Source: an uncultured Ignavibacteria bacterium (GTDB lineage: Bacteria > Bacteroidota > Ignavibacteria > Kapaibacteriales > UBA2268). From it: a DNA stretch of 64,000 nucleotides. Positions 2,203 to 64,000 of this stretch are shown piece after piece. The notes beneath the pieces are model-generated. The model did not search any database. It was given only the letters and a program-made list of their open reading frames with translations, and was not told the origin of the DNA. The stretch covers positions 15,311 through 79,310 of the forward strand of contig CAIOZA010000139.1 in the NCBI GenBank assembly GCA_903862655.1, in the 5' to 3' direction. The position numbers were made by a program, and so were the translations under genes. The stretch's first letter is position 1. Every line of letters starts with the position of its first letter.

Positions 2203-2566
2203 ACAGAATCCCCTATTTATTATGAATTTATATTAATAGTAATTTTTGATCGCTTATTAGATAATATTTACATATTACATCAATAAAATTAAAACTATAA
2301 ACAGGAATGAGCACAAAAATAATCTTTTAACAAGTCATGTACTTATACCCAAATATATGCTCTTGTAATTGTATAAAGTTAGAATAGCTGTAAATATATT
2401 AACAACTACTCCCTTGTCTGCAACTTAATAATTAATTATTTTTAAACCAAGATTAATTTTTGATATTATGTATTCAAATGTTGGTAGTGCGACAATTGGG
2501 GTAACTATTGAGTGTCCCACTATTTGGGGATACTCCAAGTCGAGTTCAAATAAAACGGGTTGTGAT

Positions 2567-4591: not shown

Positions 4592-4818
4592 AGTAATATT
4601 TGCATTTCAGCCACGAATATGGTTATGAGTCTTTTTAACTCAATTAATTGTCAGCAAAAAAAACAAAATTCAAAGGCTCTACAAAATAAATACAAAATAT
4701 ATTATTCTGCTCCACAATATACAAAGTAGTGCTAAAAGATACAAACATTTTTTTTATTAAATATTTCTTCAGCTCTTTCAATTAATTAGTACAGGCTGGG
4801 TGCTGAACAAAGAAAATA

Positions 4819-4884
4819 GATTCGCTTCGCAGGTCTCCGACACCTGCATTAGCTTTGCTTTTACTGGGTGATCGCAGGAATGGA
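4819..4884. repeat. partial copy of intergenic repeat family R1 (right half)
   Basis: cctgcattagctttgcttttactgggtgatcgcaggaatgga aligns with cctgcattagcttcgcttctacttcgtggtcgcaggaatgac at 61426-61468 and with the copy at 52450-52495. Confidence 0.6.
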
Positions 4885-4913
4885 CATTCACTGCGACCAG
4901 ATATCCTGTGGGT

Positions 4914-6518: not shown

Positions 6519-6544
6519 TATATCCTTTCAAGTTTATATCTTTC

Positions 6545-7828
6545 CTAATTTTCTATTTCATTCACTTCTGGCAATGTAAAATAGAATGTACTTCCCTTGC
6601 CTTCTACGCTATCAGCCCAGATTTTACCCTTGTGCATGTCAATAAACTCTTTGCAGACCAAAAGCCCCAATCCTGTGCTAAGTTCCTTTTCGGTGCCGGG
6701 GCGCTTTACAACTTGATTAATTTGGAATAATCTTTCTAATATGTCTTCACTCATGCCTATACCGTTATCCTTTACGTAGAAACAGTGACTCTGGAGCATA
6801 CTAACATAGCCTATCTCGACTTTTTCGCCTCTGGGAGAAAACTTAATAGCATTTGTTATCAGATTCCTTAGCACGGTGTTAATCATTTGAAAATCGGCAA
6901 CAATTTCTATGTCATCCGGTATATTGATAGTAAGCTCGATATCCTTTACTTTGGCAGATTCGCCTTCGGCGATAAGACTTTCGCTAATTACTGACGATAA
7001 CTTACATGGCTTTGGGTTGAATATTATTAATCCCCGCTGCAATTGCGACCATTCGAGTAAATTCTCCAGAAGTTTGTATAAGTTAGTTGCAGAATGGAAA
7101 ATTGTTTTGGTGTAAGCTTTCAAATCTCCCATTTTCAAATGCTGAATGTTCTCAGCCATTCCTTGGGTTAAGTTGATGAACCCACCCATTGGTGATCGCA
7201 AGTCATGAGCAATAATGGAGAAGAATTTGTCTTTTGAGGCATTAAGATTAGCTAATTCGATATTTTTTTGTTTGATCAATTGCTCGGTTTCTTTGAGGTC
7301 TGTTATGTCGATTATGCTTAGCAAGCAATCCTCATTGTTGCCGGCTCTGATACCTTCTATCAAGACATATTTATCAGATTGACTGCCGGACCTGATAATA
7401 AATTCTCCTGAAGACTTGCCTGCATTCATTAGCAATCTATCGAAGTATTCCACGAAAGCAATTCGTTGTTCAGGAAGAACATACATGTTAAAATTTTGGT
7501 TGACCAAATCTGACCTGTTTTTGTCCAGCATTTTCGTAGCTTTAATGTTCAACCTTTTGATAAGACAATTAGCAGAAAGTGTAATATATGCTGTAGGAGC
7601 AAAATCATACAATTCTAAATACTCATCTCTGGCTTTTACTGCATCTTCCCGAGAATTAAGAAGCTCATGATTCTGAATATCCAATTCGATTTGGTGAACT
7701 TCAAGCTCATAAATCAACTTTAAGTTATCAGCAGGAAGCCTTTTTGAAGAATTGTGCACGAGTTCTGATAAAACTTTTTCAGCTTTTTCGCGCAAGGGAT
7801 TGTTTTCTGATTGATTGTCCTGTTTCAT
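6545..7828 (-). CDS. PAS sensor histidine kinase (HK paralog 3)
   Basis: Same architecture as paralogs 1 and 4 (YELEVHQIELDIQNHEL, FFSIIAHDLRSPM). I chose the ATG at 7826-7828 (MKQDNQSENNPLREKAEK) because it aligns with the N-termini of the paralogs. The track start at 7879 is a TTG. Confidence 0.85.
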   Translation of the reverse strand: MKQDNQSENNPLREKAEKVLSELVHNSSKRLPADNLKLIYELEVHQIELDIQNHELLNSREDAVKARDEYLELYDFAPTAYITLSANCLIKRLNIKATKMLDKNRSDLVNQNFNMYVLPEQRIAFVEYFDRLLMNAGKSSGEFIIRSGSQSDKYVLIEGIRAGNNEDCLLSIIDITDLKETEQLIKQKNIELANLNASKDKFFSIIAHDLRSPMGGFINLTQGMAENIQHLKMGDLKAYTKTIFHSATNLYKLLENLLEWSQLQRGLIIFNPKPCKLSSVISESLIAEGESAKVKDIELTINIPDDIEIVADFQMINTVLRNLITNAIKFSPRGEKVEIGYVSMLQSHCFYVKDNGIGMSEDILERLFQINQVVKRPGTEKELSTGLGLLVCKEFIDMHKGKIWADSVEGKGSTFYFTLPEVNEIEN

Positions 7829-7932
7829 AAAAATTATCTCGGAATATATTCTTGAGGGCAGATGCCCGTTGTGATTCAAATTTAGCTGCTTCGCAGCAAA
7901 GTTTCAATATGCAAGATGCTTAGAATTCGGAC

Positions 7933-9201
7933 CTATTCAGGCAAAGTAAAATAGAATGTGCTACCCTTGCCCGGTTCGCTTTCAGCCCAGATTTTACCGC
8001 CCTGTTTTTCGATAAATTCTTTGCAAAGCAGTAGCCCCAAGCCTGTACTTGACTCATTTTCGGTGCCGGGTCTTGAGACATTCCCATCAAGTTTGAATAT
8101 ATTTTCCAAAGATTCTGTGTCCATACCAATACCATTGTCTTTTATGTAGATACATTCTTCTGATGCCTTGTTAACTGTTCCAATTTCGATTCTGCCGCCT
8201 CTATTGGTAAACTTGATAGAGTTAGAAATTAAATTCCTTATTATTGTGTTAATCATTTGCAAATCGACGGTTACTTCAGTATCAGCCGAAATATTACTAA
8301 TCAGCTCTATCTCTTTTTGATTTGCAAGATCAAATTCGAATTTAAAATTGTCATCAATTATTTTACGAAGATTATATTTATCAGGATGTAATTTTGTTAA
8401 TCCGCGTTGCAATTGAGACCATTCAAGCAGATTCTCGAGAAGTTTAAATAAATTCTTTGCAGATTGATGCATTTTGCTGGCATAGGTTTGCAATTCGCAC
8501 ATTTTCAGATTTGGCATATCTTCGGACATCAATTTGCTCAAGCCAAGAAAGCCATTGAAGGGAGAACGCAGATCATGGGCAATTATACCGAAGAATTTAT
8601 CCTTGGAGGCATTGATCTTGATAAGTTCTTCGTTCTTTATCCTAATAGCTTCTTCAATCTGCTTTTGCTGCGTGATATCAACTAAAGACAATTCACACGA
8701 ATCATTCTTTCCCAGATAGATTCCTTCTATCAGCACAAATATTGCAGGAATATCATCATTTTCCAAAAAAACCTCACAGGCTTCTTTGGACTGACTTTCG
8801 AATACTCTTTCCAGAAATCTGCTGAATATAATCTTGTAATCCTTTGAAACATAAAGAGCAAAATGCTTGTTTTTTAATTGTGAACGGTCTTTGCCAAGTA
8901 TTTTAAATGCATTAATGTTCAATTCAAGAATTTTTCCATCTTTGGAGAGAGTAATATATCCTGAAGGTGCAAAGTCATACAATTCAAGATATTTATCTTT
9001 TACTAAGACAGCTTCTGCCCTGGCAAGGATGAGTTCTTCATTTTGCATTTCGAGCTCAATCTGGTGAACTTCAAGTTCGTAAACTAATTTGAATATGTCA
9101 GCTTCGGACAATTCATTGTTAAATCTAGACTGTTTCTTTGCCAAAGACTCTTCGGCTTTTTCGCGAAGTTCTTTTGCAGCGGTAATATCTTCTTGTTCCA
9201 T
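7933..9201 (-). CDS. PAS sensor histidine kinase (HK paralog 4)
   Basis: YELEVHQIELEMQNEEL, one PAS domain, H-box FFGIIAHDLRSPF and an HATPase core ending GSTFYFTLPE. Confidence 0.9.
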   Translation of the reverse strand: MEQEDITAAKELREKAEESLAKKQSRFNNELSEADIFKLVYELEVHQIELEMQNEELILARAEAVLVKDKYLELYDFAPSGYITLSKDGKILELNINAFKILGKDRSQLKNKHFALYVSKDYKIIFSRFLERVFESQSKEACEVFLENDDIPAIFVLIEGIYLGKNDSCELSLVDITQQKQIEEAIRIKNEELIKINASKDKFFGIIAHDLRSPFNGFLGLSKLMSEDMPNLKMCELQTYASKMHQSAKNLFKLLENLLEWSQLQRGLTKLHPDKYNLRKIIDDNFKFEFDLANQKEIELISNISADTEVTVDLQMINTIIRNLISNSIKFTNRGGRIEIGTVNKASEECIYIKDNGIGMDTESLENIFKLDGNVSRPGTENESSTGLGLLLCKEFIEKQGGKIWAESEPGKGSTFYFTLPE

Positions 9202-15352: not shown

Positions 15353-15367
15353 TTTTCTAGAACTATA

Positions 15368-15405
15368 ATGAGGTAATCGAATATCACTCGATTACCTCAT
15401 TTTTC
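15368..15405 (+). terminator. Rho-independent terminator
   Basis: Perfect 13-bp stem atgaggtaatcga / tcgattacctcat with a 7-nt loop, followed by TTTTC. Confidence 0.8.
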
Positions 15406-26163: not shown

Positions 26164-26202
26164 AAAAAAAATCCTTGCAATTAGCTGATTGCAAGGATTT
26201 TA
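26164..26202 (-). terminator. Rho-independent terminator downstream of tRNA-Lys
   Basis: 11-bp perfect stem atccttgcaat / attgcaaggat (26171-26198). It is followed on the minus strand by a T7 run (A7 at 26164-26170). Confidence 0.75.
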
Positions 26203-31181: not shown

Positions 31182-31216
31182 AAAGCCCTTGTAACTCTAA
31201 GAATTACAAGGGCTTT
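31182..31216. terminator. hairpin terminator between convergent HK5 (+) and the tRNA pair (-)
   Basis: 13-bp perfect stem aaagcccttgtaa / ttacaagggcttt. A T-run follows on the minus strand (rc of taaaaaatt) and TTT follows on the plus strand. Confidence 0.7.
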
Positions 31217-34436: not shown

Positions 34437-35753
34437 TTATATTTTTATGAATTTACTGACTTTATCCCCAATCCTCACAAAAAACATACCCGGTGCCAAG
34501 CCGGAGACATCGATTCTTACTCCCTCTCCACTTGTGGATAGGGTTGGGGTGAGGTCGCAGTTCTGACCGAATACATTATATATCTTTATGCTGCTTTGTT
34601 CGGACACGGCACGCCGTGTCCCTACGGATATTTCTATGAAATCAGTGGCAGGATTCGGTGAAATATCTATTAAATTGTCACTTTTAAGTTTTTCTGGTAC
34701 CGAAGTAGTATTTATATTTGTAAACCGCCAAACACTTAGGTTAGGAGTACATGCTAATAGCTTATCCTTTGTAAGAGCTGTACACCAAATCCAATCCTGT
34801 GTATATCCTTGATAATCTTCATATTTATATAAATTTATCCAAGTTCGTCCTGTATCTTTCGACATATATGCTCTTGAAAATCCACCTGTTGTATATAATA
34901 CTCCATCTTTAAAATCTATTGACCAAAATCCTGAATAATTACTTGAATCAAATATAGCAAACCATGTTTTACCACCATCAGTAGTTTTATGTATTGTGGC
35001 ATCTCTTCTATTTTTGTGTGCTATTGTATCTGTATAGTAGTGATCAAAGCATGTAAATCCAACTGTATCATTAATGAATTTTAAATCAAATCCGGGTAAT
35101 CCTCCTTTTGAATATATATTCCATGTTTCTCCAAAATCATCTGATCGAATTGTATAATATTTAGATTTATTCCATATAAATGCAACTATGGAATTATTTG
35201 TAGGCATACATACATTAAAATCAAAGTAATAATTATTATCTAAACTATCTGGTAAAACTACCTTTTTCCAGGAAGACCAGCTATTTTTTGTCAAGAATAA
35301 TGATTTTTTTGTACCAATCACTCCAATTTCTGAATCAAACATATGAATGCGCTTTAAATTTTCGTCAGTAATGTGTGTTTTAATCCAATTTTCACCACCA
35401 TCGTTGGTTTTTAATACATTACCACTATCAATAGTTACAAAACAGTGCTTATTATCAGTATATGAAATGTGACGAGGAATTCTAGCAATAGCATCCTCAT
35501 ATATAATACCAGCACGATATTCCTGAAAACTTGGCATCCATGAATTACCTCCATCTGTAGTCTTTTTAATATATAAATCACTGCCATTAGCACCGAATAA
35601 CATGCAGTTCAATGAATCTGCTGCAGAAATACCATAATACCAGTTCGCTGTACTTTCTCTCTCAAGCACTTGCTCCCATTTACCTATTTTTTCTGAATAT
35701 GTTGTTGAAATAATTAACAAGTGAATTTGTATAATCATTAATAATTTTTTCAT
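34437..35753 (-). CDS. secreted BNR/Asp-box repeat protein with T9SS C-terminal sorting domain (BNR-A)
   Basis: Signal peptide. Asp-box motifs TTDGGNSW, TNDGGENW, SDDFGETW, TTDGGKTW and SKDTGRTW. The C-terminus ISPNPATDFIEISV...GMFFVRIGDKVSKFIKI is typical of Por_Secre_tail CTDs. Confidence 0.8.
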   Translation of the reverse strand: MKKLLMIIQIHLLIISTTYSEKIGKWEQVLERESTANWYYGISAADSLNCMLFGANGSDLYIKKTTDGGNSWMPSFQEYRAGIIYEDAIARIPRHISYTDNKHCFVTIDSGNVLKTNDGGENWIKTHITDENLKRIHMFDSEIGVIGTKKSLFLTKNSWSSWKKVVLPDSLDNNYYFDFNVCMPTNNSIVAFIWNKSKYYTIRSDDFGETWNIYSKGGLPGFDLKFINDTVGFTCFDHYYTDTIAHKNRRDATIHKTTDGGKTWFAIFDSSNYSGFWSIDFKDGVLYTTGGFSRAYMSKDTGRTWINLYKYEDYQGYTQDWIWCTALTKDKLLACTPNLSVWRFTNINTTSVPEKLKSDNLIDISPNPATDFIEISVGTRRAVSEQSSIKIYNVFGQNCDLTPTLSTSGEGVRIDVSGLAPGMFFVRIGDKVSKFIKI

Positions 35754-35772: not shown

Positions 35773-35803
35773 TAAAAAAGGAGTCATTCAAAGCAAATGA
35801 CCC
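35773..35803 (-). terminator. Rho-independent terminator after the Cys-rich gene A
   Basis: Minus strand reads aaggggtcatt-tgctttg-aatgactcc followed by TTTTTT. The stem has one mismatch. Confidence 0.65.
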
Positions 35804-35813
35804 CTTAGATTTG

Positions 35814-36731
35814 TTAATGAATTATAATAAATTTGCCATCAGCAACTTTTTCAAGTCCAAGGAAAATGGAATAAAAATAAATTCCGTTTGGAAATACATT
35901 TGTATTTACACTAAATTTCGATTCTAAATTTTCAATAGACATTGTTTGTGAATTAATTTCAATCCCTTTCGAATCAAATATTTTCAAATTCAGATTTCCA
36001 TTGATTTTATTAACTAAACCAATGTCTATTGTGCTGTTTGCCGGGTTCGGAGAAGTAAATGAATTATTTTGAAATTGAGTATTGATTAAACTCTGTTCTT
36101 CTTCAAGATTTGCTGATTTTGCTAATACACCTACTTGTGGCAACCAATCACAAACATATAAGCATGCATTTCCACCTTCAGGAACACAGTCAACATAATT
36201 AGATGAGTTTGAAGCATAAACAATCACAAATTCTCCATTTTGATTGCAGATTTTATAATTTATTGTACAACAATTATCCGTGTTACACCAACTCATTACC
36301 CATGGTGCAGAAATGCCTGCCGTCCATTTCCAACAAGAAACATTAACTACTTCAATTCCATCAATGCAATCGCCATTATTTGCAGGAACTGCAATAGTAT
36401 TATATTTTAACATAATACCAATTGCTTTCTGGAATAAAACACCATCCGAAAAACAGAGTTTACATTGATTAGAAACTGTGAAAGATACCATTTGCAGTTG
36501 TTTCACTGTCGGATTAAAACAAGTTAATTCCCTTTCGCAAAATGTAACAGTCATAGAGCATCCATTGCAACCATTAATAATAGTTGTTATTGTGATATAA
36601 TTCCACCCATTGTTTAAAGGAACAGGAGGTGGACAAGGCCAGGATGAATTGCAGGGAGGTAAAGCAGATAACGAACTAAAAGATAAAGTTAAAAAACTTA
36701 TCATAATTATTAAATTAATTATTTTTTTCAT
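35814..36731 (-). CDS. Cys-rich secreted protein with T9SS C-terminal sorting domain (Cys-A)
   Basis: Start chosen at MKKIINLIIMISFLTLSFSSLSA (signal peptide). More than 20 Cys in the mature part (CNGCSMTVTFCERELTC, SCWKW, CCTINYKIC). CTD is SPNPANSTIDIGL...GIYFYSIFLG...KFIIIH. No recognised family. Confidence 0.7.
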   Translation of the reverse strand: MKKIINLIIMISFLTLSFSSLSALPPCNSSWPCPPPVPLNNGWNYITITTIINGCNGCSMTVTFCERELTCFNPTVKQLQMVSFTVSNQCKLCFSDGVLFQKAIGIMLKYNTIAVPANNGDCIDGIEVVNVSCWKWTAGISAPWVMSWCNTDNCCTINYKICNQNGEFVIVYASNSSNYVDCVPEGGNACLYVCDWLPQVGVLAKSANLEEEQSLINTQFQNNSFTSPNPANSTIDIGLVNKINGNLNLKIFDSKGIEINSQTMSIENLESKFSVNTNVFPNGIYFYSIFLGLEKVADGKFIIIH

Positions 36732-36975
36732 GATGTTTTTATTTGAATTATTGATAAATAGTAAATTAATGGTTAAATTTGTGCTGATAAACTGTTCCTT
36801 TTTAAACACGAGTTGCAGTTTATCTGTGTGAGTGGAGTCGGTGGGGGCATTAATTCTGTCGGCTCTACTTCTTAATTATGCCCCAATTACACAATGGTGT
36901 TCATAACATCTCCAAAAAGATATATTTGTTTTCAGGAAATTCTATGCGTTAATGATTAGAATTCCCCCTTTGATT
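36732..36975 (-). promoter_or_regulatory. conserved 5' leader / upstream region, copy A (shared with 56108-56350)
   Basis: Near base-for-base alignment with the region upstream of Cys-B. Contains mini-ORF ATGAACACCATTGTGTAA (36887-36904) preceded by GGAG, a 7-bp stem ggggcau/augcccc (36844-36884) and a 9-bp stem gauaaacug/caguuuauc (36786-36824). Confidence 0.6.
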
Positions 36976-37419: not shown

Positions 37420-38385
37420 TTAAATAATTACTCTTTGGAATTTTTGAAATTCCTTTTCGTTGGGCAGTCGGACTCCGACGAAATGGACAACCTCGGACTC
37501 GTGAACCAGAGCGGAGGCAAAGCCTTCTTTTGATTCGTAACGATAGTCTTCTCCCAAACCGACTGATTTATACATGTTCTCATATCCGTAGCGGATATAA
37601 TTTAGAAATTCTTTGCATTGATTGACATAATCAACTTCTTTGTATTCTTTATTGTCAAAATGTGCTGTTGAAGAATAGCTCTTTATGAGCTTTTCAGCTA
37701 CATTTGAGAATGACTCTGCATTGGACAGATACTCAATTCCTGCGATCTCTCCGTTAATGATGATAATCATTCCTTTCTGATTTTCTACTGCTTTGAATTC
37801 CTTTTGGTAATCCCCGAATTCTTTTTCATTTTTCTCATACACATCGTCCATAGCCATTGTGTTGCTTTCTACTTTTGCTCTACGGGTGAATGCAGCGACA
37901 TCTTCCCATACTTCAGACTGATCTGCACGGAACTTATTCGATACTTTTAGACTCATATTGACCGAAGCCATTCGCTTGGCACGGATTTCATAGTTCATAA
38001 GGTTATCGGAATCTGCAAAGTGTTTGTTTTTGCTGTAGTTCCATCTCCCCTGCTCCACGCAGGCAACATTGATAATGGTCGTAGTCTTTTTTTCGAGAAG
38101 AACTGTAGCATTGATTACGCGGTTTTGCTTTGCCCCGATGAACTGTTCACCATCGATAATCAGGACAAGATTATCCGAGTGGTTGATTACTTTCAATTCG
38201 GGAACATGACCTGATTCACTGACTTCAGTAATTTCAACTTCTTTTGCTTTGATTGATTCGGATAATGTTCTGTAAATTAGTTTATCACCATTATTATGAA
38301 ATAAAGGGATAACTGTCATATTCTTGTAGCTCTGGGGTGAGCCGAAGGATACGCTGTCGATTAATTTTGCAACTGAGGGATTCAT
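37420..38385 (-). CDS. ARPP-1-like (DUF6569-type) protein
   Basis: Start chosen at MNPSVAKLIDS. Motifs MTVIPLF, EVEITEVSESGHVPELKVINHSDNLVLIIDGEQFIGAKQNRVINATVLL and VACVEQGRWNY match my recollection of the ARPP-1 family signature (DGEEL-GAKQNR ... CVEQGRW). Not database verified. Confidence 0.55.
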   Translation of the reverse strand: MNPSVAKLIDSVSFGSPQSYKNMTVIPLFHNNGDKLIYRTLSESIKAKEVEITEVSESGHVPELKVINHSDNLVLIIDGEQFIGAKQNRVINATVLLEKKTTTIINVACVEQGRWNYSKNKHFADSDNLMNYEIRAKRMASVNMSLKVSNKFRADQSEVWEDVAAFTRRAKVESNTMAMDDVYEKNEKEFGDYQKEFKAVENQKGMIIIINGEIAGIEYLSNAESFSNVAEKLIKSYSSTAHFDNKEYKEVDYVNQCKEFLNYIRYGYENMYKSVGLGEDYRYESKEGFASALVHESEVVHFVGVRLPNEKEFQKFQRVII

Positions 38386-38470
38386 AAATAACTCTTTATT
38401 ATTTGGAAAATAATATTTACATTGCAAAAATAACGGGCAGTACGTCACAAAATGTCATTTATAAAAATTG

Positions 38471-39484
38471 ATGAAAAAAAATATGAAAAAAAAGTCGGGA
38501 GAAGAATCAGGGCAATCTTTGCAAGCCAGAAGAGTTGTCTGGATGCTGAAGAAGCTACAGAATGGATACAAGTTTACGGCTAAGGACTTTAAGAAGGAAA
38601 TTGATATTGAGTTTGGCGAAGTATCGCTAAGAACTGTTCAACGAGACATACAGCTACTTCAGGAATGTGAGACTCTGGTCGAGTCTTATCAGGACGGTAA
38701 GTCACCATACTATTATTTTTCAAAAGTGAGCAGAAGACCATCAATACCTAAAATTGAATCAAGTGAGTTGCTATCGTTCCATATTTTAAAGGCATATCTG
38801 AAGAATTTTAAAGGAACAGTTATTGAAGCCGAAGCAAATAAATTATCAAAGAAGCTGGATTATGTAGCACCAGAAGATGTGTTTCTCGAAGAGAGTTTGT
38901 ATTGGGATAAGAATATAGGTCAGTTTGATTATACAGATTTTGATCCATTGATAAGAAGAGTGATTTACCAGATTACTAATAAAAAATGGGCAGACATACA
39001 GTATAGACCTGTGGAATCAGAGGAGAGCCGTCTCTATACTGCGTTCTTTAGATCAATTTTTACTTATGCTGGTTATCTATATGTTGTGGCTTATCTTCCT
39101 GTGCATAATAGCCATGTAGCATTTGCCATACATAGATTAGAGGCGATAAACGAGAAGGAGAATTATAATCATGAATTACCTGATTTTGATTTGGATGAAT
39201 TCGCCAAAATAAGATTCGGAGTTTACTGGGGACAAACAGAAGAAGTTGAACTATACATACAAAGCAAGTATGCTCATTACTTTGAGAACAGGAAATGGCA
39301 TACATCGCAGAGATTCGCGACAGACAGGAATGGGAATTTGACGATAAGGATGACTGTTCCGATAGCGACTGACTTCGTAGCCTGGCTTATGAGCTGGGGT
39401 GACCTGATTACGGTCAGAAAACCACAGATACTCATAGATCAAGTAATTGACAGAGCTGATAGAATACTAAACAATTATGAATAA
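38471..39484 (+). CDS. WYL-domain transcriptional regulator (YafY/BrxR/CapW-like: HTH + WYL + WCX)
   Basis: N-terminal HTH (RRVVWMLKKLQNGYKFTAKDFKKEIDIEFGEVSLRTVQRDIQLL), a central WYL-like region (IQYRPVESEESRLYTAFFRSIFTYAGYLYVVAY) and a C-terminal extension (TVPIATDFVAWLMSWGDLITVRKPQIL). Divergent from the ARPP-1-like gene. Confidence 0.7.
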   Translation: MKKNMKKKSGEESGQSLQARRVVWMLKKLQNGYKFTAKDFKKEIDIEFGEVSLRTVQRDIQLLQECETLVESYQDGKSPYYYFSKVSRRPSIPKIESSELLSFHILKAYLKNFKGTVIEAEANKLSKKLDYVAPEDVFLEESLYWDKNIGQFDYTDFDPLIRRVIYQITNKKWADIQYRPVESEESRLYTAFFRSIFTYAGYLYVVAYLPVHNSHVAFAIHRLEAINEKENYNHELPDFDLDEFAKIRFGVYWGQTEEVELYIQSKYAHYFENRKWHTSQRFATDRNGNLTIRMTVPIATDFVAWLMSWGDLITVRKPQILIDQVIDRADRILNNYE

Positions 39485-43559: not shown

Positions 43560-44735
43560 ATGGAAAACCTATCTATACTTTTTGCTATCGAGGCAGAGGA
43601 AATGTTCAACAATGGTGACTTTTTCTCTGCTATTGATTTATGTATGAGAGGAAAAGAACAGTTTCCGGATTATCAGCTTGGGTATGTAATATTAGCTAAA
43701 GCTTATTACGAAATATATGATTACGAGAATGCTAAGTTAATAATTGCAGAAGCCAGAAAGAAATTTCCGACAAACAGATTAATTAATTCACTATACGAAA
43801 CTTTCAATAATCAGACAGAGGTTGATAATGGATCATTACTTGATGTATTTGACACAACTGTTGAGCCTGAATCCTTCACTTCTGATGAACCCATTGTATT
43901 AGAAGAAATACTTAATTATTCTGAAATTGGATTGGAACCTGCTATTGAAGCCGAACCTGATGTCGATGATATATCTATTGAATCTGAGACAATTGATGAA
44001 GGAGATACTGTCGAGTTAGAGGAAACAATTAGTGTTCCTGAAATTGGATTGGAACCTGATATTGAAGCCGAATCTGATGTCGATAATATATCTAGTGAAT
44101 TTGAGACAATTGATAAGGAAGATACTTTCGAGTTAGAGGAAACAATTAGTGTTCCTGAAATTGGATTGGAATCTGATATTGAAGCCGAATCTGATGTCGA
44201 TAATATATCTATTGAATCTGAGACAATTGATGAAGAAGATACAATTGAGTTGGAGGAAACGGCTGAACATGGAATTAATGAAAATGATTCCAGGGCAGAT
44301 CAGGAAAATTTTCTTCGTTTAGTTGTTTCTTATGATGCTGGTGATATGAATATAAACTCTTTGAAATCCAGCAATCCAGCCTTAATCCCCGGATTGAATT
44401 ATACTCCGCTTCGAGCAAGAAGCCGACGTTCAACAGAAAGAAGCGATAAGCACATACCTATCTTCCCTGACTTTTCAGTGCATTTTGGTGATGAATTAAT
44501 TCAACACAGGAACTTTGATAGCTACTCAAATGATATCGACAATTATGAATCCGATGAATACGATGAACCAGTGGATAGCATTCCTATGATAGTATCCGAT
44601 ACTTACGCATCAATACTTGTTGCGCAGGGAGCATATTCAGAAGCATTGGGAACATACAAGGAACTTTGCTTGAGAAATCCTGAAAAATCAGAATTTTACA
44701 ATCAAAAGATTGAAGAACTTCAATTGATGATTTAG
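43560..44735 (+). CDS. TPR-like protein with a central acidic tandem-repeat region
   Basis: N- and C-terminal TPR-like helices (GYVILAKAYYEIYDYENAKL; AQGAYSEALGTYKELCLRNPE) flank three 39-aa acidic repeats. Confidence 0.6.
   Translation: MENLSILFAIEAEEMFNNGDFFSAIDLCMRGKEQFPDYQLGYVILAKAYYEIYDYENAKLIIAEARKKFPTNRLINSLYETFNNQTEVDNGSLLDVFDTTVEPESFTSDEPIVLEEILNYSEIGLEPAIEAEPDVDDISIESETIDEGDTVELEETISVPEIGLEPDIEAESDVDNISSEFETIDKEDTFELEETISVPEIGLESDIEAESDVDNISIESETIDEEDTIELEETAEHGINENDSRADQENFLRLVVSYDAGDMNINSLKSSNPALIPGLNYTPLRARSRRSTERSDKHIPIFPDFSVHFGDELIQHRNFDSYSNDIDNYESDEYDEPVDSIPMIVSDTYASILVAQGAYSEALGTYKELCLRNPEKSEFYNQKIEELQLMI
43923..44273 (+). repeat. three tandem 117-nt (39-aa) in-frame repeats
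   Basis: EIGLEPAIEAEPDVDDISIESETIDEGDTVELEETISVP / EIGLEPDIEAESDVDNISSEFETIDKEDTFELEETISVP / EIGLESDIEAESDVDNISIESETIDEEDTIELEETAEHG. Unit starts are at 43923, 44040 and 44157. Confidence 0.95.
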
Positions 44736-44820
44736 GTATCCTTTCCGTAATTATAATTAAGATTTCCTTTACTATTTTATATGCGACATAATAAAGCATG
44801 ATTTTATTTATTTTTGTAAT

Positions 44821-46020
44821 ATGAAAGAAAACACAATACTAACAGTTAGTGAATTAACAGGTACGATAAAGAGAGTACTTGAAAATGAGTTTGGAGATAT
44901 AACCGTAAAAGGGGAAATATCTAACCTTATTAATCATTCTTCAGGGCACAGGTACTTTACATTGAAGGATGACGGTGCCCAGATTCAGTGCACACTCTGG
45001 AAAAGTCGCCCTGTAAATTTCGTATTAACAAATGGAATGAAAGCCATTGTACGTGGTGCTCTTTCTGTTTATCCCCCACGTGGGAACTATCAGATTGACG
45101 TTACGCGAGTCACTCCGGAGGGACAAGGAGATTTCTACCTGGCTTTCGAAGCATTAAAAGCGAAACTAAGCGAAGCAGGATATTTTGATCATGACAGAAA
45201 GAAAGCTTTGCCTGAAATCGTTCTGTCAATTGGAATAATCACTTCTCCAACTGGTGCAGTTATCCAGGATATGAAGACTACAATTAACAGAAGATTCCCC
45301 GCCGCTACTATATATTTCCGACCAGCCAAAGTTCAGGGTGACGATGCATCAGCAGATATTTCTTCAGCTATAAGGGAAATGCAGAAACTGCCTCTTGATG
45401 TCATCATTGTTGGCAGGGGTGGTGGATCAATAGAAGACCTTTGGCCATTCAATACTGAAGAAGTCGCAAAAGCTATCTATTCATCAAAAATTCCTATTGT
45501 ATCTGCTGTCGGTCATGAAACCGACACTACAATTGCTGATTTTGTAGCTGACCTGAGAGCACCAACTCCAACGGCTGCAGCAGAATTGGTAACGACAAAC
45601 ACATTAGCTGACTATAATAATTATTTTTCAGATTTATCGAGAAGGATGATGGATTCTATGACATCAAGAATCGAAGCTGGAAAAGATGACATTTTTTCTT
45701 TCCTAAATTCTTATAGTGTACGGAAATTTATTAATAAAATCAGACAAAATCAGCAATTTGTCGACGAGCTGGATAGTTCATTGCAGACTACAGCATCAAG
45801 GAACATAAAATCACTGAATCAAAATCTTAGCAGGATTGAAGCACACTTGCTATCACTTAATCCAGATAATCCACTAAAGAAAGGTTTTGCTATTGTGCGA
45901 AATGAATCCGGTGCAATAATTGGGAATAATTATCAATTGAAGAATACGGATAAAATAGTTATTCAGCGTTACAAACAAAAGGTTTTAAGTCAAATACTCG
46001 ACAATCAATATTTAGGATAA
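44821..46020 (+). CDS. xseA: exodeoxyribonuclease VII large subunit
   Basis: LTVSELTGTIKRVLENEFGDITVKGEISNL...GHRYFTLKD and GRGGGSIEDLWPFN. Confidence 0.9.
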   Translation: MKENTILTVSELTGTIKRVLENEFGDITVKGEISNLINHSSGHRYFTLKDDGAQIQCTLWKSRPVNFVLTNGMKAIVRGALSVYPPRGNYQIDVTRVTPEGQGDFYLAFEALKAKLSEAGYFDHDRKKALPEIVLSIGIITSPTGAVIQDMKTTINRRFPAATIYFRPAKVQGDDASADISSAIREMQKLPLDVIIVGRGGGSIEDLWPFNTEEVAKAIYSSKIPIVSAVGHETDTTIADFVADLRAPTPTAAAELVTTNTLADYNNYFSDLSRRMMDSMTSRIEAGKDDIFSFLNSYSVRKFINKIRQNQQFVDELDSSLQTTASRNIKSLNQNLSRIEAHLLSLNPDNPLKKGFAIVRNESGAIIGNNYQLKNTDKIVIQRYKQKVLSQILDNQYLG

Positions 46021-52892: not shown

Positions 52893-53169
52893 TATTCATA
52901 TTTAATTTCAATGGAAAAAAATCAAAAATTAACAAAATATAAATTTATTCATCAGAATCAAATTTTCTAACACTGAAATCCCCAAGAAGGGTTTCATTAT
53001 CTTTCTCTTTGTTTATGAAACCAAGACGGTTTCTGCTTTCTGTTACATCTACTTGCTTCCTCTGAGATTCGTAGTCATACTTACCTAAAATAGCTCCTCC
53101 GTTACTTACAACAGAAAGGGTGGCGAAGCCAATGAATAATGATGTTATATTTTTTCAAATTTGTTGACT

Positions 53170-55443
53170 TTATCTCAATAATATCACAGGTACAACCTTT
53201 ACTGCATCACCGTGATTTATTTTGATATAATACGTACCAACAGGCACATCGGGCTGAGGAGTCCATGTTAAAATACCACTATATGAATTAGCTTTATTGA
53301 GAGCAAAGTCTTCTCCCACCGATACTATTGAACCATAAATATTATAAACTTTAAATATGGAAAGATCTATATCATATCGTTGATCCCAGAAAATCTGACA
53401 ACTGACATAATTCTTTGCAGGAATCGGATATGGTGGATTGGCATAAAAGGCAATTTGTACTTCAGTATTAACATCTGTTGTTGTGTCTTTGGGAATTAAT
53501 TTAAAAAGATAGGGTTTCTTGTTAAATCTTCCAGTTAGATAAGAGACATTAGAACCAGAAAATTCATTAGCAAAATTATATGAAGATTTTTCTGTTACAG
53601 ACCAATTTGATAATTCTTCAGGAAAATTTTTGTTTAAAATATTATAGTAATAACCATTAACAATATTTAGATCAATGAAATGAAAAAAACTATAAAGGGA
53701 TGAAATAGTATCGGGATAAATTGATAAATAAATGTTTTTGGTTGATAAATTTATATTATGTAGAGAATAATCATATTTATTTGATACTATAGGATTTTTA
53801 TTCGATGATATAACCAGAATATTATTATTAATGCGACTTGTAGCATTAATAAGACCAGGATACCCAAAGGATTTATCTTTTGTCCAGGATCTCCCGTAAT
53901 CATCAGAATTTATTAACCAATATTGTCTGATAGCAAAAGTATCGTCATCTAACTGCCCTGGACCAGGCAATCTACGTTCCAAACCGATTGCAATATAATT
54001 CGGACCATCTTGATGAAAAATTTCACATATTACGATCGAATCTAAAATACCATAATCAATATAATTGAAATTGTCATCCAATGAATATATAGTTGTGTAA
54101 TGATCCTTACCAATTCGCATATTATTTAAAATAGTAAAACCGCTTTCTTTTTTTATTAGCCTTGATTTAAAATTATCTGAACTGTTCATCCTTAGATTTT
54201 CAACATCCTTATATTCAAATGTTTCTCCATAATCTTTTGTAGTCATAATGTTGTACTCAGTAGAAAATCCCCAAGACTTATAAACAAAACCAGTACCAAG
54301 GCTATCAAAATAAGCTAAGTCAAAATTAGAATATTGTTTGATGCTTTCCGGATATGTTTTTTGAGGTAGCCAAGTTATACCGCCATTAGTAGTCTTACTG
54401 ACTATTCCATTGTAGGTATAATTATAACAAAGTTTATCATTTACCCAATAACTGGTTATTGAATATGGAAAATGGGACAATACTGTCCAGTTAAGACCTT
54501 CATTTGTGGATTTGAGAATTGTTTTGTTCCTCCCGACAGCAAAAAACAAATTATTATTTGTTTTAATAAAATCAATTGGCATTAAGTCCGAATACAGAAC
54601 TACTCTGTCTAAAGCACCTTGAGAAATTAATTGATTAATATTTTGGAAATCGATTTTATAAAAAACAGGCATCCCAAGCTTATTTGTTGATGAATTTAAA
54701 TAAATATAATAATAATCTGATTCAATCATTTTACCAAAACCAGTTGTACCTTTTGCTATTTGTGTCCAAGAATTACCTTCATCAGTTGATTTAATTAAAT
54801 CACCATCATCAATTGTCATTACGACTGAAGTTCCATTATATGTTAAATTGAATGGTTCAATACATTGATTACATAAACCTAAGTCCTTGAAATTAATAAT
54901 CTCAGTTTGCTTTCGATCTTTAATCTTATAGATTAATAATTGACCTGAATTGTGGGGAATAAGAATATTTTCTGTCGTTACCAGAAACTTTTTTCGACTA
55001 TTGTTGTATACAATATTGAGTGTGTCGATTAGGTTTAAATCTAAGCCATAGACCAGTACTTGGTTATCTGACAATAAATATATTTTATCCTTGGATGAAT
55101 TAATATCATAAATTATATTTCCATCAATTTTTAATTTTTTCCAGGATTTACCATTATCAATAGATTTTATCAGACCATTATCTGATAAAATTCCAAAAAA
55201 ATCTTGGTTTACATAAATAATTTTCTTGATTTCCAATGAATCTTGAGCTACCTTTATTTGTGCCCATGTGTTTCCGTCATCTGTTGTTCGAAGGATCATG
55301 CTACCAGTTCCATAAGCTAAAACGCTTGAATTATTATTGCATATCCCATTGAAATCAACATTCAATCGCTCAACATCAAATGGATATTCGAAAGCTACTA
55401 AGTTAATTGTTGAGAAAATTAAAAGTAGAAATATAGTTTTCAT
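53170..55443 (-). CDS. secreted BNR/Asp-box repeat protein with a divergent T9SS-like C-terminal domain (BNR-B)
   Basis: Signal peptide. Asp-boxes TTDDGNTW, SIDNGKSW, STDEGNSW, STNEGLNW, TTNGGITW, TKDYGETF and SDDYGRSW. C-terminal beta-rich domain ...VGTYYIKINHGDAVKVVPVILLR. Confidence 0.75.
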   Translation of the reverse strand: MKTIFLLLIFSTINLVAFEYPFDVERLNVDFNGICNNNSSVLAYGTGSMILRTTDDGNTWAQIKVAQDSLEIKKIIYVNQDFFGILSDNGLIKSIDNGKSWKKLKIDGNIIYDINSSKDKIYLLSDNQVLVYGLDLNLIDTLNIVYNNSRKKFLVTTENILIPHNSGQLLIYKIKDRKQTEIINFKDLGLCNQCIEPFNLTYNGTSVVMTIDDGDLIKSTDEGNSWTQIAKGTTGFGKMIESDYYYIYLNSSTNKLGMPVFYKIDFQNINQLISQGALDRVVLYSDLMPIDFIKTNNNLFFAVGRNKTILKSTNEGLNWTVLSHFPYSITSYWVNDKLCYNYTYNGIVSKTTNGGITWLPQKTYPESIKQYSNFDLAYFDSLGTGFVYKSWGFSTEYNIMTTKDYGETFEYKDVENLRMNSSDNFKSRLIKKESGFTILNNMRIGKDHYTTIYSLDDNFNYIDYGILDSIVICEIFHQDGPNYIAIGLERRLPGPGQLDDDTFAIRQYWLINSDDYGRSWTKDKSFGYPGLINATSRINNNILVISSNKNPIVSNKYDYSLHNINLSTKNIYLSIYPDTISSLYSFFHFIDLNIVNGYYYNILNKNFPEELSNWSVTEKSSYNFANEFSGSNVSYLTGRFNKKPYLFKLIPKDTTTDVNTEVQIAFYANPPYPIPAKNYVSCQIFWDQRYDIDLSIFKVYNIYGSIVSVGEDFALNKANSYSGILTWTPQPDVPVGTYYIKINHGDAVKVVPVILLR

Positions 55444-55501
55444 ACAAACCTCAAAATAACAGACAGGCTGATTTTCAACCTGTCATTTTTTTCTCAAATA
55501 T

Positions 55502-56107
55502 TTAATTACAACCTAAATTTCTACATTCTGTTTCCCATTCTTCATAAATTGTTTTCCCAGGTGGTGGCAATTGAGGTTGTCCTAATGGGCACATTTCGAC
55601 TCCAATAGGGATACAACCTAAAGGTGTTATTACATTATGTGGAACAAGGTGAGTAAAGTCTGTACAAATTTTATATGTACATTCACACTTGCCTTGGGAT
55701 ATACATGATACTAACTTTAAAACTCCATGATTAGGATCATTTACAAATTTCCAACAATCTACCCTTGTAAATATAGCTAAAGTAGATTGCAATGGACAAG
55801 GTGGATAAATGGGTGCAGTAAATAAATCAGATATCATAGCCATTTCTACAGCACGCCAAAAATCCAAATTTTATGTAATATCAAAAGCACATGAAATATC
55901 CATTTCTGTCCTATCATAAGTTATATGAGTGACACCCATTGGATCTATCATATAACAGTAATATATGGTTCCTTGACAAGTAGGATTTGTATATATAAAA
56001 GGGACTGATCTAGGCGTATACCCGTCAGGACATATTGCTTCTACTTCATTCGTAAATAATAGAATGAAAGATAGAATAAAAGTTACAATCAAAAGTTTAT
56101 AATACAT
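55502..56107 (-). pseudogene. Cys-rich secreted protein paralog (Cys-B) interrupted by one in-frame TAA
   Basis: ORFs 55871-56107 and 55502-55867 are in the same frame, separated only by TAA (55871-55873) and one codon. The read-through sequence ...ISCAFDIT*NLDFWRAVEMAMI... is collinear with KLCFSDGVLFQKAIGIML of Cys-A. Later matches are CWKF/CWKW and CECTYKIC/CCTINYKIC. Confidence 0.6.
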
Positions 56108-56350
56108 AATAAAACTCCATTTATATTTTATTTTAAATTTATAATGAATTAAATTTGTAGCTGATAAACTGTTCATATTTCATAGATTGTTGCAGTTTAT
56201 CTGTGTTAGTGGAGCTGGTGGGGGCATTAATTCTGTCGGCTCCGCTTCTTTTTTATGCCCCAATTATGCAATGGTGTTCATATCATCTCCAAAAAGATGT
56301 ATTTATTGGATTTTTAGGAAATTCAAACTATTTTAATTTAGAATTCCCCT
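56108..56350 (-). promoter_or_regulatory. conserved 5' leader / upstream region, copy B (shared with 36732-36975)
   Basis: Mini-ORF ATGAACACCATTGCATAA (56264-56281) preceded by GGAG, and a 9-bp stem at 56163-56201 with a loop different from copy A. Weaker similarity continues to about 56550. Confidence 0.6.
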
Positions 56351-62749: not shown

Positions 62750-64000
62750 TTACAACTTAACAAATTTCCCAACCTTATCCCCAATCCTCACAAAATACAT
62801 TCCCGGTGCTAAGCTGGAAACTTCGACACGTAAGGGCAATTCATGAATTGCCGCTACAGACAATACCGTTTGTCCATAAACATCATATATCCTCACATCG
62901 TTTTGTAAGGGCGAACGGCCGTTCGCCCCTACGGATATTTCTATGAAATCGGAGGAGGGATTGGGAGAAATTGAAAAATCGGATTGATTATAATTTATGA
63001 ATTCATCATCTACTCCTAAAGGAATTTGTTGCTTAGCAAACCATACTACATCTGATTTGATCAGCGAATCATATGAAGATATTACGAACAAGCTGTCATT
63101 AAATGCCTTAAAATAAAATGTCGAATATCTTTGACGTGGTGTAATATTCTTCCAATCATAAGGATTTGCTTCTAAATCATCATTAGACAGCAATTCCATT
63201 TTGATACCATCAGTTAAGTAATAAATGGTATTTACAAGCGTTTTGCTTCCGATTCTGGAAACATTATTTACACTCAAATCTGTTTGTGAATACAATGAAT
63301 CAATAGTCTTATTTTTCAAATTCAGTCTATATATTGTTCCCAAGTAAGACGAATCCTGCTGGGTGCTGACATTATAAAAAACTATATTGTCACCTGACTT
63401 TTTGCCATTTGGGAGATATAGCTCTAAATCAGTAACATTAGATAGAATAGATTCTTCTTGCCATGTTAATCCAGCATCTAGAGAGCTAAGCAATGTATAA
63501 TATATTTTGTTATATTTCACAATTTTGTCAATTTCTTCTCTTTCCCTATAATTGATGACAACAGCATACATTTTTCCATTCTCAAACGTATCGATAAATA
63601 GAAAATTCAATGAATCTAGTACAGTCCTGACGATTTCATTCATTTCATTGTCAAGGCGGGAAATAATTGTATAATAATATTTGTCAAGAAAATGACCGGG
63701 TATAATTAGAAGATTGTTGTTTTTATTTTTTAAACTAAATTTCTTTGGTGCCTGAGCATATTTTAATTTAGAGTTATCTTTCAGTATAACATTCTCACCA
63801 CCATCATTTGTATAGGCGAAATTTGATCTGCCAGATATATTAATGCTAATAAATATGTAGCCGTTATTTTTATCAGAAAAAAATGTACTTCCAAAGTTAG
63901 AATAATCTGCAAAATCAGAATATCGATATTCATTTGAATAATTCTTTTGCGACAACCAAGTTGAGCCACCATTAGTTGTTCTTTCGAATTTTACATAAGG
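62750..64000 (-). CDS. BNR/Asp-box repeat protein with T9SS C-terminal sorting domain (BNR-C); N-terminus runs off the window
   Basis: The frame stays open upstream of the track start to position 64000 (PYVKFERTTNGGSTWLSQKNY...). Asp-boxes TTNGGSTW, TNDGGENV and SLDAGLTW. The CTD ISPNPSSDFIEISV...GMYFVRIGDKVGKFVKL is about 80 percent identical at nucleotide level to the BNR-A CTD. Confidence 0.8.
   Translation of the reverse strand, partial: PYVKFERTTNGGSTWLSQKNYSNEYRYSDFADYSNFGSTFFSDKNNGYIFISINISGRSNFAYTNDGGENVILKDNSKLKYAQAPKKFSLKNKNNNLLIIPGHFLDKYYYTIISRLDNEMNEIVRTVLDSLNFLFIDTFENGKMYAVVINYREREEIDKIVKYNKIYYTLLSSLDAGLTWQEESILSNVTDLELYLPNGKKSGDNIVFYNVSTQQDSSYLGTIYRLNLKNKTIDSLYSQTDLSVNNVSRIGSKTLVNTIYYLTDGIKMELLSNDDLEANPYDWKNITPRQRYSTFYFKAFNDSLFVISSYDSLIKSDVVWFAKQQIPLGVDDEFINYNQSDFSISPNPSSDFIEISVGANGRSPLQNDVRIYDVYGQTVLSVAAIHELPLRVEVSSLAPGMYFVRIGDKVGKFVKL

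Follow-up and report, generated by a model that had tools for sequence, protein, structure and literature searches.

A conserved leader block upstream of Cys-rich/BNR secreted-protein operons in an uncultured Ignavibacteria bacterium, a candidate sense/antisense regulatory module

In a window of 64,000 nucleotides (nt) from an uncultured Ignavibacteria bacterium (contig CAIOZA010000139.1; the window is the whole stretch analysed), we identified a conserved non-coding block of ~200 bases that occurs in three copies, two in the window and one in a metagenome, each preceding a secreted-protein operon. The operons encode type IX secretion system (T9SS) cargo of the form 'Cys-rich secreted protein plus BNR/Ycf48-like propeller'. 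We tentatively read the block, with slightly less than even confidence, as a sense/antisense regulatory module of these operons, resembling the DonS-like cis-antisense small RNAs (sRNAs) of Bacteroides. Its antisense half (~36774-36881) is the best-supported part of this sequence-based reading. The conservation, the strand-specific pairing, the positions of the motifs and the recurrence of the layout in other lineages were observed directly.

Copies A and B lie upstream of the minus-strand genes Cys-A and Cys-B, the latter a nonsense allele, and copy C lies upstream of Cys-C on a contig (L016) of a Joint Genome Institute (JGI) metagenome (Table 1). The two window copies, which make up family D5 in the repeat scan of the window, were aligned on the gene (minus) strand, and sub-patterns of 26-27 nt from the block matched the window only there (0 expected from shuffles). 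The first-pass annotation of this DNA had reported an almost base-for-base match of the two leaders, and the alignments bore this out. Pairwise among A, B and C, identity was 91, 91 and 96% in a 106-nt core, 96-100% in a 22-nt 3' core and 86-95% in the arms of a hairpin termed P1. It was 50-67% in the P1 loop, 61-71% in the loop of a second hairpin, hp9 (21, 21 and 19 nt long in A, B and C), 59-76% in the linker with indels of 4-5 nt, 46-66% in the flank of 60 nt upstream of the block, 53-57% in the spacer of 41-46 nt between the block and the start codon, and 54-58% in the first 300 nt of the coding sequence (CDS). Gapped global alignment of unrelated A+T-rich DNA here gives ~50-58% identity, which was taken as background. 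The CDS values equal this background, in agreement with the earlier statement that the genes share no nucleotide similarity, and the sole patch shared by the Cys-A and Cys-B proteins spans 65 residues at 26% identity (E 0.012). The weaker similarity previously traced to ~37250 and 56550 is real but low, and is broken by an indel of ~70 nt.

Copy C, the third independent copy, retains the five-codon mini open reading frame (mini-ORF; last codon GTA, Val) and both stems described earlier from A and B, with the same block boundaries. It also precedes the same operon architecture: Cys-C has 299 residues, is 27% identical to Cys-A, carries a T9SS tail and has a further BNR propeller gene downstream. 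All three operons that the block precedes are thus of one type, with proteins that have diverged almost beyond recognition, protein identity across the three loci being at most 27-29%, and that of the BNR proteins 22-29%, in patches. Leader B is fully conserved despite the nonsense codon in Cys-B. Contigs of the same species from other samples (L007-L010) were 100%, 100%, 100% and 99.8% identical to the window and added no variation. With the core 91-100% identical and loops and flanks at background, the earlier proposal of selection on the leader held up; judged by these sequences, the block is under long-term purifying selection over ~170 nt and is no recent duplicate. Since the hairpin loops are at background within near-identical arms, a recent duplication, which the first-pass annotation had named as an alternative, or a conversion tract is all but excluded.

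That the block has no regulatory function and is a recently spread repeat, whether an element like a miniature inverted-repeat transposable element (MITE), a gene-conversion tract or a recombination handle for cassette swapping, is very improbable. Such a repeat would fit the sharp boundaries, the far better conservation of the block than of the neighbouring genes, the presence of other short repeat families in the window and the state of locus B, which looks strain-variable: several independent assemblies break at window position 55554, inside Cys-B (the ends of L007 and L008), and on contig L004 a 98% identical RarA is followed directly after its stop by unrelated DNA (3419-3620), the contig ending ~200 nt past RarA in the Nextera adapter CTGTCTCTTATACACATCT. 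A recent copy or conversion tract would, however, be uniformly similar, and here the loops are at background and the arms identical; the block ends also lack terminal inverted repeats and target duplications. A MITE or other mobile repeat was rejected in particular, as the ends (GGGGAATTC... and ...ACAAATTTAA) are not inverted repeats, only three copies were found in the collections searched and the flank homology in B and C runs on beyond P1. Known mobile DNA was rejected for want of any plasmid or phage match, and an invertible promoter because the block has no flanking inverted repeats.

The collections searched comprised 596 Gb of genomes, metagenome contigs (241 million records) and 5.8 billion proteins, and they held no further copies beyond A, B and C. 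A pseudo-translation of the block without stops, searched as if it were a protein, recovered copy C. With the exact 20-mer GGGGCATTAATTCTGTCGGC, one chance match appeared in the genome contigs (L001) and none in the metagenome contigs; three block patterns gave nothing in viral contigs except one chance match (L012); and among plasmid and phage sequences the sole match was an unrelated 34-nt chance hit inside a plasmid gene. No block leader was found next to the RarA homologue of L004, and L005 has different neighbours; homologues of the epimerase neighbour, followed as a route to further leaders, yielded only short contigs. Rfam 15, searched on both strands, returned nothing at the gathering score and up to E = 10 only a chance snoRNA and RAGATH-27 (E 1.6-6.5), consistent with the earlier judgement that the leader belongs to no known riboswitch or leader class. 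Six-frame translations of copies A and B (chimeric) matched none of the 5.8 billion proteins, and hence no gene has ever been called in the block. Nor does it behave as coding DNA: all frames on both strands gather stops or mostly non-synonymous changes between copies. A small sense ORF beginning MPPP(T/A)PLTQINC... (15-25 amino acids; 36773-36850, 56180-56227 and L016 ~2175-2229, all on the minus strand) runs through the block, with its ATG in the 3' arm of the GGGGCAU/AUGCCCC stem and its variable C-terminus within the hp9 loop. Two of its three substitutions are synonymous, but it has no Shine-Dalgarno (SD) sequence, and three changes are too few to judge by.

On the plus strand, opposite to the genes, all three copies carry the box TAAATTTG, a perfect match to the Bacteroidetes-type TAnnTTTG, at the point where conservation starts, 4-5 nt before the first hairpin and ~50 nt before a long hairpin. 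TAnnTTTG is the -7 element of the Bacteroidetes primary sigma factor (sigma-A), whose -33 element is dispensable or absent in some Bacteroidetes (PMC7366714). In the window both tRNA genes are preceded by the motif, at 16 and 23 nt, with a TTTG another 19 nt upstream in the second case, and several CDS have it at 28-45 nt; promoters of this type are therefore in use in the organism. Taken alone, the box would be weak evidence for a promoter.

The first hairpin is hp9, formed by a 9-bp stem (GATAAACTG/CAGTTTATC) and a variable loop. The first-pass annotation had described this stem and its varying 21-nt loop; both are present, and in copy C the loop differs in sequence as well as in length. G·U pairs lengthen the stem to 10-12 bp on the plus strand only (-13.0 and -12.2 kcal/mol in A and B, vs -9.8 and -8.3 on the sense strand). 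The stem is invariant across the copies. Neither of the two stems named earlier ever varies, and the compensatory changes sought in them were accordingly absent, leaving no covariation evidence there.

The dominant structure of the block lies on the strand opposite to that of the earlier description. It is a long hairpin of the plus strand, with 6-7 G-C pairs and a 7-nt loop, which contains the GGGGCAU arm named earlier on the sense strand and most of the 27-nt loop of that stem. Pairing is 17/17, 16/17 and 17/17 in A, B and C, including 7-8 G·U pairs, vs 9/17 on the sense strand, with energies of -18.6, -19.7 and -21.0 kcal/mol vs -5.9, -8.0 and -7.7, and z scores of -2.8, -2.9 and -3.2 vs about -1. 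In the three-sequence alignment 98.0% of the cells of this helix are paired on the plus strand and 52.9% on the sense strand; for the two plus-strand hairpins together the figure is 98.9%, compared with 38-52% in slid controls. Four stem positions vary, all by transitions that keep the pairing only on the plus strand (U·G/C-G, C-G/U·G, G·U/G-C and U-A/U·G). About half of the pairs are G·U, which on the other strand become C·A, and the sense RNA therefore cannot form this hairpin. In copies B and C the U-tract TCTTTTTT follows it directly, and scans of both strands found terminator-like sites within the block on the plus strand only. A G·U-rich stem is what a terminator acting on one strand only would be expected to show, and we predict that the hairpin is a strand-selective intrinsic terminator of an antisense RNA. 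No annotated gene lies upstream of it on the plus strand. Elsewhere in the window, canonical hairpin-plus-U terminators stand after a CDS (15367-15401), after two tRNA units (26168-26201 and 31182-31216) and after Cys-B; an orphan long-stem hairpin with a U-tract occurs only in leader B, and a short 8-bp orphan also lies at 52974-52996. The predicted RNA, running from ~7 nt past TAAATTTG to the U-tract, would measure ~95 nt (36788-36881), and a predicted 99-nt plus-strand RNA folds into two hairpins with z scores of -2.8, -3.6 and -3.8 in A, B and C. These plus-strand elements (box, hairpins and U-tract) lie 43-150 nt upstream of the Cys start at all three loci.

The same observations bear on two explanations at the DNA level. 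In one, which we consider quite unlikely, the block would be a control region holding the operon promoter and operators (the inverted repeats P1 and hp9) for one transcription factor common to the paralogous operons. Two inverted repeats with conserved arms and free spacers would suit this, as would the promoter-like TGGAGA-17-CATAAT or TATAAT in B and C and the TCTTTTTG element inside the block, and the location upstream of co-oriented operons of one type at all three loci. However, 106 contiguous nt at 91-96% identity far exceed the needs of operators and a promoter, and no regulator gene common to the three loci was found among the neighbours. The rigid form of the shared operator region proposed by the first-pass annotation is weakened by the hp9 spacer of 21, 21 and 19 nt and by a 1-nt deletion in a P1 arm, which is absorbed by wobble pairing and does not keep half-site spacing. 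Where the arms depart from perfect complementarity, the mismatch on one strand is regularly a G·T (7-8 in the long hairpin, 2 in P1), which points to RNA pairing. The other explanation, a single-stranded DNA hairpin signal on the plus strand (an attC-like or HUH-enzyme site) for recombination of Cys-BNR cassettes, is extremely improbable. It would account for a strand-specific hairpin with G·T wobble pairs next to hypervariable operons, of which locus B appears strain-variable; yet none of the three loci has an integrase, HUH or transposase gene as a neighbour, the hairpin is found upstream of the genes and not at cassette 3' ends, and the U-tract and the -7 box fit transcription better.

The distance from the long hairpin to the Cys start is 99, 101 and 103 nt in A, B and C. 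Leaders of other Cys homologues share no sequence with the block, by nhmmer among other comparisons, and three of the four testable homologues with such unrelated leaders have an antisense-oriented terminator-like hairpin upstream (L002, L003 and L019; Table 1). On L003 it is preceded by a hairpin with a 19-nt loop, and on L019 by a perfect 11-bp palindromic hairpin; the folds have z scores of -5.0 on L003 (antisense, vs -2.7) and -5.4 on L019. The sense leader of L019 (1117-1245) further contains AAGGAG-N7-ATG AGA GAA ATA TAA, a 4-codon mini-ORF abutting the 11-bp hairpin. As a control, we scanned the other upstream regions of the window, with the two Cys genes excluded. Two of 20 had an antisense-oriented terminator-like hairpin, both otherwise explicable; the filter (at least 150 nt of upstream region) over-counts at overlapping genes, so that the truly valid regions are fewer than 20. 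A layout of predicted antisense promoter, hairpin and terminator, with a sense mini-ORF beyond, thus recurs with unrelated sequence in other lineages. The idea that every member of the Cys family has an antisense terminator ~100 nt upstream was rejected, because L018 has no such hairpin.

The sense half of the block was examined in the same way. It holds P1, a TCTTTTTGGAG element with GGAG 5 nt before the start codon of the mini-ORF, and the mini-ORF itself, the GGAG and the mini-ORF being as the first-pass annotation had described. The predicted ORF is kept in 3/3 copies and would encode MNTIV, MNTIA and MNTIV in A, B and C, a peptide with no repeated codon and no obvious regulatory codons. 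P1 folds better on the sense strand (-11.4, -11.5 and -9.0 kcal/mol with z scores of -4.2, -2.2 and -2.9 in A, B and C) than on the plus strand (-8.2, -4.9 and -5.6). One of its pairs has changed on both sides, being U-A in A, A-U in C and U·U in B, and another has changed from A-U to G·U. GGAG sits in a small sense-specific hairpin, AUCUU-UUUG-GAGAU, which is 100% paired on the sense strand and 77.8% on the plus strand and carries a U·G to C-G change; P1 and this hairpin together have 96.1% of cells paired on sense vs 76.5% on plus. The 7-bp GGGGCAU/AUGCCCC stem noted earlier is present as well, as P2 with a 27-nt loop. It is mutually exclusive with nothing on the sense strand, and its loop is complementary to the 3' arm and the U-rich tail of the long plus-strand hairpin. 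The mini-ORF stop lies 2 nt before GGGGCAU, the complement of the antisense terminator. A long-range sense pairing, UGGAG/CUCCA, is predicted and is invariant.

Embedded in the TCTTTTTGGAG element is TCTTTTTG, one mismatch from the -7 consensus and the only sense near-match in the block, directly preceding GAGATGnnATG. The layout 'TTTTG-GAG...ATG' also occurs at the real Cys start codons in L002 and L003, and GGAG could for that reason be part of a promoter, instead of or besides being a ribosome-binding site. We also observed -7 boxes (TAnnTTTG or one mismatch) 4-12 nt before several start codons, often as TTTTG-GAG/AGG-N-ATG (window 44809-44823, 7877-7884 and 55444-55465; L002 528-548; L003 315-336; L019 1315-1341). 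Such close spacing suggests that mRNAs of this clade have very short leaders or none, and GGAG can be read either as an SD sequence or as promoter-proximal sequence.

The block could be a purely sense-strand cis-regulatory leader, as in the first-pass annotation, an alternative that we rate as rather unlikely. The mRNA would start upstream of P1 and the mini-ORF would be translated; a ribosome at its stop would remodel P2, the GGAG/CUCCA pairing and hp9, and so affect translation, stability or Rho-dependent termination. GGAG-N5-ATG with a five-codon ORF in 3/3 copies (last codon GTG, GCA or GTA), the sense preference and both-sided change of P1 with the GGAG hairpin, the predicted UGGAG/CUCCA pairing, the mini-ORF directly before a hairpin in the unrelated leader of the distant homologue L019, and the constant 41-46 nt to the start codon all favour it. 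On the other side, P2, hp9 and UGGAG/CUCCA never vary and offer no covariation, MNTIV has no obvious regulatory codons, and TCTTTTTG-GAG may be a promoter -7 element and not an SD sequence. The near-invariant 27-nt P2 loop and the segment after it have no sense structural reason to be conserved, and their changes keep the plus-strand hairpin paired. Terminator scans found no U-tract after any sense-strand hairpin of the block (P2 is followed by CACC and hp9 by AGCACAAA), and classical attenuation is therefore unsupported. Of the leader-peptide or attenuator interpretation in the first-pass annotation, the selected cis-regulatory leader and the conserved mini-ORF stand, and the attenuator hairpin does not.

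In the sense/antisense module that we prefer, a small RNA gene would lie on the plus strand opposite to the operon, with TAAATTTG as its -7 box and a start ~7 nt later. Its RNA would begin with a hairpin whose stem is invariant and whose loop differs between loci, continue through a short linker, and end at ~95 nt with the G·U-rich hairpin and its U-tract. Antisense transcription would stop at the G·U-rich hairpin, and sense transcription would read through it. The sense half (~36885-36968) comprises P1, the GGAG or -7-like TCTTTTTG element and the predicted mini-ORF. The antisense RNA would pair with the leader of its own operon or interfere with its transcription, and would thereby tune or repress the operon, and translation of the mini-ORF together with the sense hairpins would modulate access to the leader. 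Both the transcription of either strand at the proposed places and this regulatory outcome are what we infer from sequence. In our interpretation, only a model of two overlapping or abutting transcription units makes use of every part of the block, and such double use of the DNA would explain the fixation of almost every base.

Several observations weigh against this module. Only three homologous copies are available, and B and C are 96% alike. TAnnTTTG is common in A+T-rich intergenic DNA (100 matches in the window, about one third of them intergenic), and neither A nor B has a -33 TTTG 17-23 nt upstream of the plus-strand box. The pairs of the long hairpin change on one side only (wobble) and are never compensated on both; copy A has a weaker, interrupted U-tract (CTTAATTATG); and bona fide terminators of the window are Watson-Crick perfect and often bidirectional, unlike the G·U-rich leader hairpin. 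Among the other Cys homologues, the L002 hairpin is bidirectional in form and could serve the upstream gene, and L018 has no antisense terminator-like hairpin upstream. Finally, conservation is just as high over ~90 nt past the predicted terminator, a stretch whose better fold is on the sense strand, and an sRNA alone therefore does not explain the block; the antisense RNA may also be divergent from the sense RNA rather than overlapping with it.

A more specific form of the module is unlikely. The block may be a new kind of paired sense/antisense switch, in which each hypervariable operon would have a near-invariant antisense RNA, the hp9 loop (19-21 nt) would provide orthogonal locus recognition, and a translated mini-ORF and a G·U-written one-way terminator would set the winning strand. 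By analogy with plasmid antisense RNAs, we speculate that the variable hp9 loop is a recognition surface of the locus's own. If such a switch were real, it would mean individual or mutually exclusive expression of a variable family of surface or secreted proteins in a bacterium of the Fibrobacterota-Chlorobiota-Bacteroidota (FCB) group, and other lineages (L003 and L019) would have acquired or kept this layout with unrelated sequence.

Table 1 Positions of the block, its elements and the adjoining genes (window coordinates unless a contig is named)
Feature	Copy or contig	Position	Strand	Description and basis
Block	A	36766-36968		upstream of Cys-A; alignments, nhmmer, segment identity
Block	B	56142-56350		upstream of Cys-B; alignments, nhmmer, segment identity
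Block	C	L016 (Ga0194062_1019178) 2140-2352		upstream of Cys-C
-7 box TAAATTTG	A	36774-36781	+	perfect TAnnTTTG
-7 box TAAATTTG	B	56150-56157	+	perfect TAnnTTTG
-7 box TAAATTTG	C	L016 ~2153-2160	+	perfect TAnnTTTG
hp9	A	36786-36824	+	energies, pair counts
hp9	B	56163-56201	+	energies, pair counts
Long G·U-rich hairpin	A	36830-36870	+	16-17 bp, loop GCATTAA; terminator scans
Long G·U-rich hairpin	B	56208-56246	+	16-17 bp, loop GCATTAA; terminator scans
Long G·U-rich hairpin	C	L016 2209-2249	+	16-17 bp, loop GCATTAA; terminator scans
U-rich tail of long hairpin	A	36871-36881	+	CTTAATTATG
U-rich tail of long hairpin	B	56247-56257	+	TCTTTTTTAT
U-rich tail of long hairpin	C		+	CTTTTTTATG
P2 stem	A	36844-36884	-	GGGGCAU (36878-36884) with AUGCCCC (36844-36850); invariant in all copies
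Mini-ORF	A	36887-36904	-	ATG AAC ACC ATT GTG TAA, MNTIV*
Mini-ORF	B	56264-56281	-	ATG AAC ACC ATT GCA TAA, MNTIA*
TCTTTTTGGAG element	A	36910-36920	-	GGAG at 36910-36913; 3/3 copies
TCTTTTTGGAG element	B	56287-56297	-	3/3 copies
TCTTTTTG	A	36913-36920	-	-7-like
P1 hairpin	A	36934-36967	-	GGGGAAUUCUA / UAGAAUUUCCU, variable 12-nt loop; folding energies
P1 hairpin	B	56316-56349	-	variable 12-nt loop; folding energies
Cys-A	A	35814-36731	-	signal peptide, Cys-rich domain, T9SS type A sorting domain
Terminator after Cys-A	A	35780-35804	-	canonical intrinsic, stem then TTTTTT
BNR-A	A	34437-35753		BNR/Ycf48-like propeller with T9SS tail, downstream of Cys-A
Cys-B	B	55502-56107	-	downstream of block copy B
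Terminator after Cys-B	B	55462-55484	-	canonical intrinsic, stem then TGTTATTTTG
BNR protein of locus B	B	53170-55443		757 amino acids, downstream of Cys-B
Antisense hairpin of Cys homologue	L002	438->421		61% to Cys-A; T7 (TTTTTTTCTT), 108 nt upstream of start
Antisense hairpin of Cys homologue	L003	235->209		48% to Cys-A; 12 bp and T5 (TTTTTAATAC), 99 nt upstream of start
Antisense hairpin of Cys homologue	L019	1172->1144		29% to Cys-A, BNR T9SS protein next; 11 bp and U-rich tail, 167 nt upstream
Antisense hairpin of Cys homologue	L018			40% to Cys-A; none
Antisense hairpin of Cys homologue	L017			37% to Cys-A; 112 nt upstream only, too short to judge

Behind the block, the Cys-rich domain of Cys-A (36117-36671, minus strand) matches no Pfam or NCBIfam model, and its family is tiny: a word search found 3 proteins, and an exhaustive search of 1.84 billion representatives found 23 clusters at E <= 0.001 and 5 at E <= 1e-10. 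A BNR/Ycf48-like T9SS protein follows the Cys-rich gene at A, B, C (L016) and L019, where the downstream gene is fully visible, and also at L003. Because a canonical terminator stands between the genes at both window loci, the Cys and BNR genes may form an attenuated operon or two separate units. In Cys-B, an in-frame TAA at 55871-55873 splits the gene into ORFs of 78 and 113/121 amino acids; the codon is Tyr in a related JGI strain (P0126: ...DITYNLDF...). The nonsense allele is on record in six contigs, the readable ones coming from several ENA samples, and it is therefore a fixed variant and not a sequencing error.

Other features of the window were recorded. Directly upstream of leader A, at 37420-39484, lies a divergent pair encoding an ARPP-1 domain protein (PF20208, E 1.7e-90) and a WYL/WCX-domain helix-turn-helix regulator, a pairing typical of defence-island contexts. 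Four tandem paralogous genes (2567-9201, minus strand) share segments of 65-72% identity (repeat families D1-D3), and a gene at 43560-44735 contains a threefold tandem repeat of 117 nt with 88% identity at 43899-44260. Two families of short intergenic repeats have 85-88% identity. One (34037-34152/62578-62693) consists of units resembling TACACAGAG and follows BNR-A and a third BNR gene (62750-63955); the other (52394-52508/61366-61481) includes the hairpin GTCATTCCTGTGCATACAGGAATC. Both are places where short-read contigs of this species tend to stop.

Among known systems, the DonS family of Bacteroides is the closest in arrangement. As summarised in PMC7366714, citing Cao et al. 2016, it consists of cis-antisense RNAs of 78-128 nt, one per polysaccharide utilization locus (PUL), which are divergent to susC homologues and repress them. 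On that summary, the likeness lies in a predicted small RNA encoded opposite to the 5' end of each paralogous surface or secreted-protein operon, in a predicted length (~95 nt) within the 78-128 nt range, and in a host of the FCB superphylum with TAnnTTTG promoters, the proposed effect here being cis repression of the cognate operon. The block differs in having no sequence or Rfam similarity or structural homology to DonS; in its partner, a Cys-rich T9SS protein with a BNR/Ycf48-like T9SS propeller and not susC/susD; in its host, which by its RarA homologues is a Kapabacteria/Ignavibacteria-like FCB bacterium, of a different phylum-level lineage from Bacteroides; and in adding a conserved sense mini-ORF and P1, with a G·U-rich, strand-selective predicted terminator. 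The element is not a member of the DonS family; it would work like one.

The block resembles leader-peptide leaders such as the trp/his attenuators and mgtA/mgtL in its predicted short ORF, with a GGAG that may be a ribosome-binding site, in a long conserved leader, in the stop beside a hairpin, and in possible alternative pairings; it differs in that it has no sense terminator, its peptide has 5 residues with no repeated regulatory codon, and its strongest hairpin is on the other strand. With CopA/CopT, RNAI/RNAII and hok/sok it shares a (predicted) two-hairpin antisense RNA of ~90 nt with its own promoter and terminator inside the controlled leader, a hairpin loop as the variable and presumably specificity-defining part, and a short leader ORF that would couple translation. 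Unlike these, it is chromosomal, precedes large secreted-protein genes, encodes no toxin-like hydrophobic peptide and has a loop of 19-21 nt instead of a 6-8-nt kissing loop. Compared with intrinsic terminators, the stem of 16-17 bp with 6-7 G-C pairs, the 7-nt loop and the following TCTTTTTT in 2/3 copies are alike, whereas half of the hairpin is G·U and no annotated gene lies upstream on the plus strand.

To our knowledge, RNA-based regulation is poorly charted outside Proteobacteria and Firmicutes, and we know of no described sRNA or leader in Kapabacteria/Ignavibacteria-like bacteria. As a concrete candidate, the block offers exact coordinates, predictions of where its RNA starts and ends, natural variation in three copies, and analogues of its structure in other lineages. 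If the sense/antisense module is correct, the logic of one cis-antisense RNA per paralogous operon, as in Bacteroides PULs, would extend to type IX secretion cargo, and G·U pairing would let a terminator act on one of two overlapping directions of transcription and not on the other. The proteins that would be regulated belong to a rare, uncharacterised and fast-evolving family whose Cys-rich domain is usually paired with a BNR propeller, and knowing when they are expressed would be a first step towards their role.

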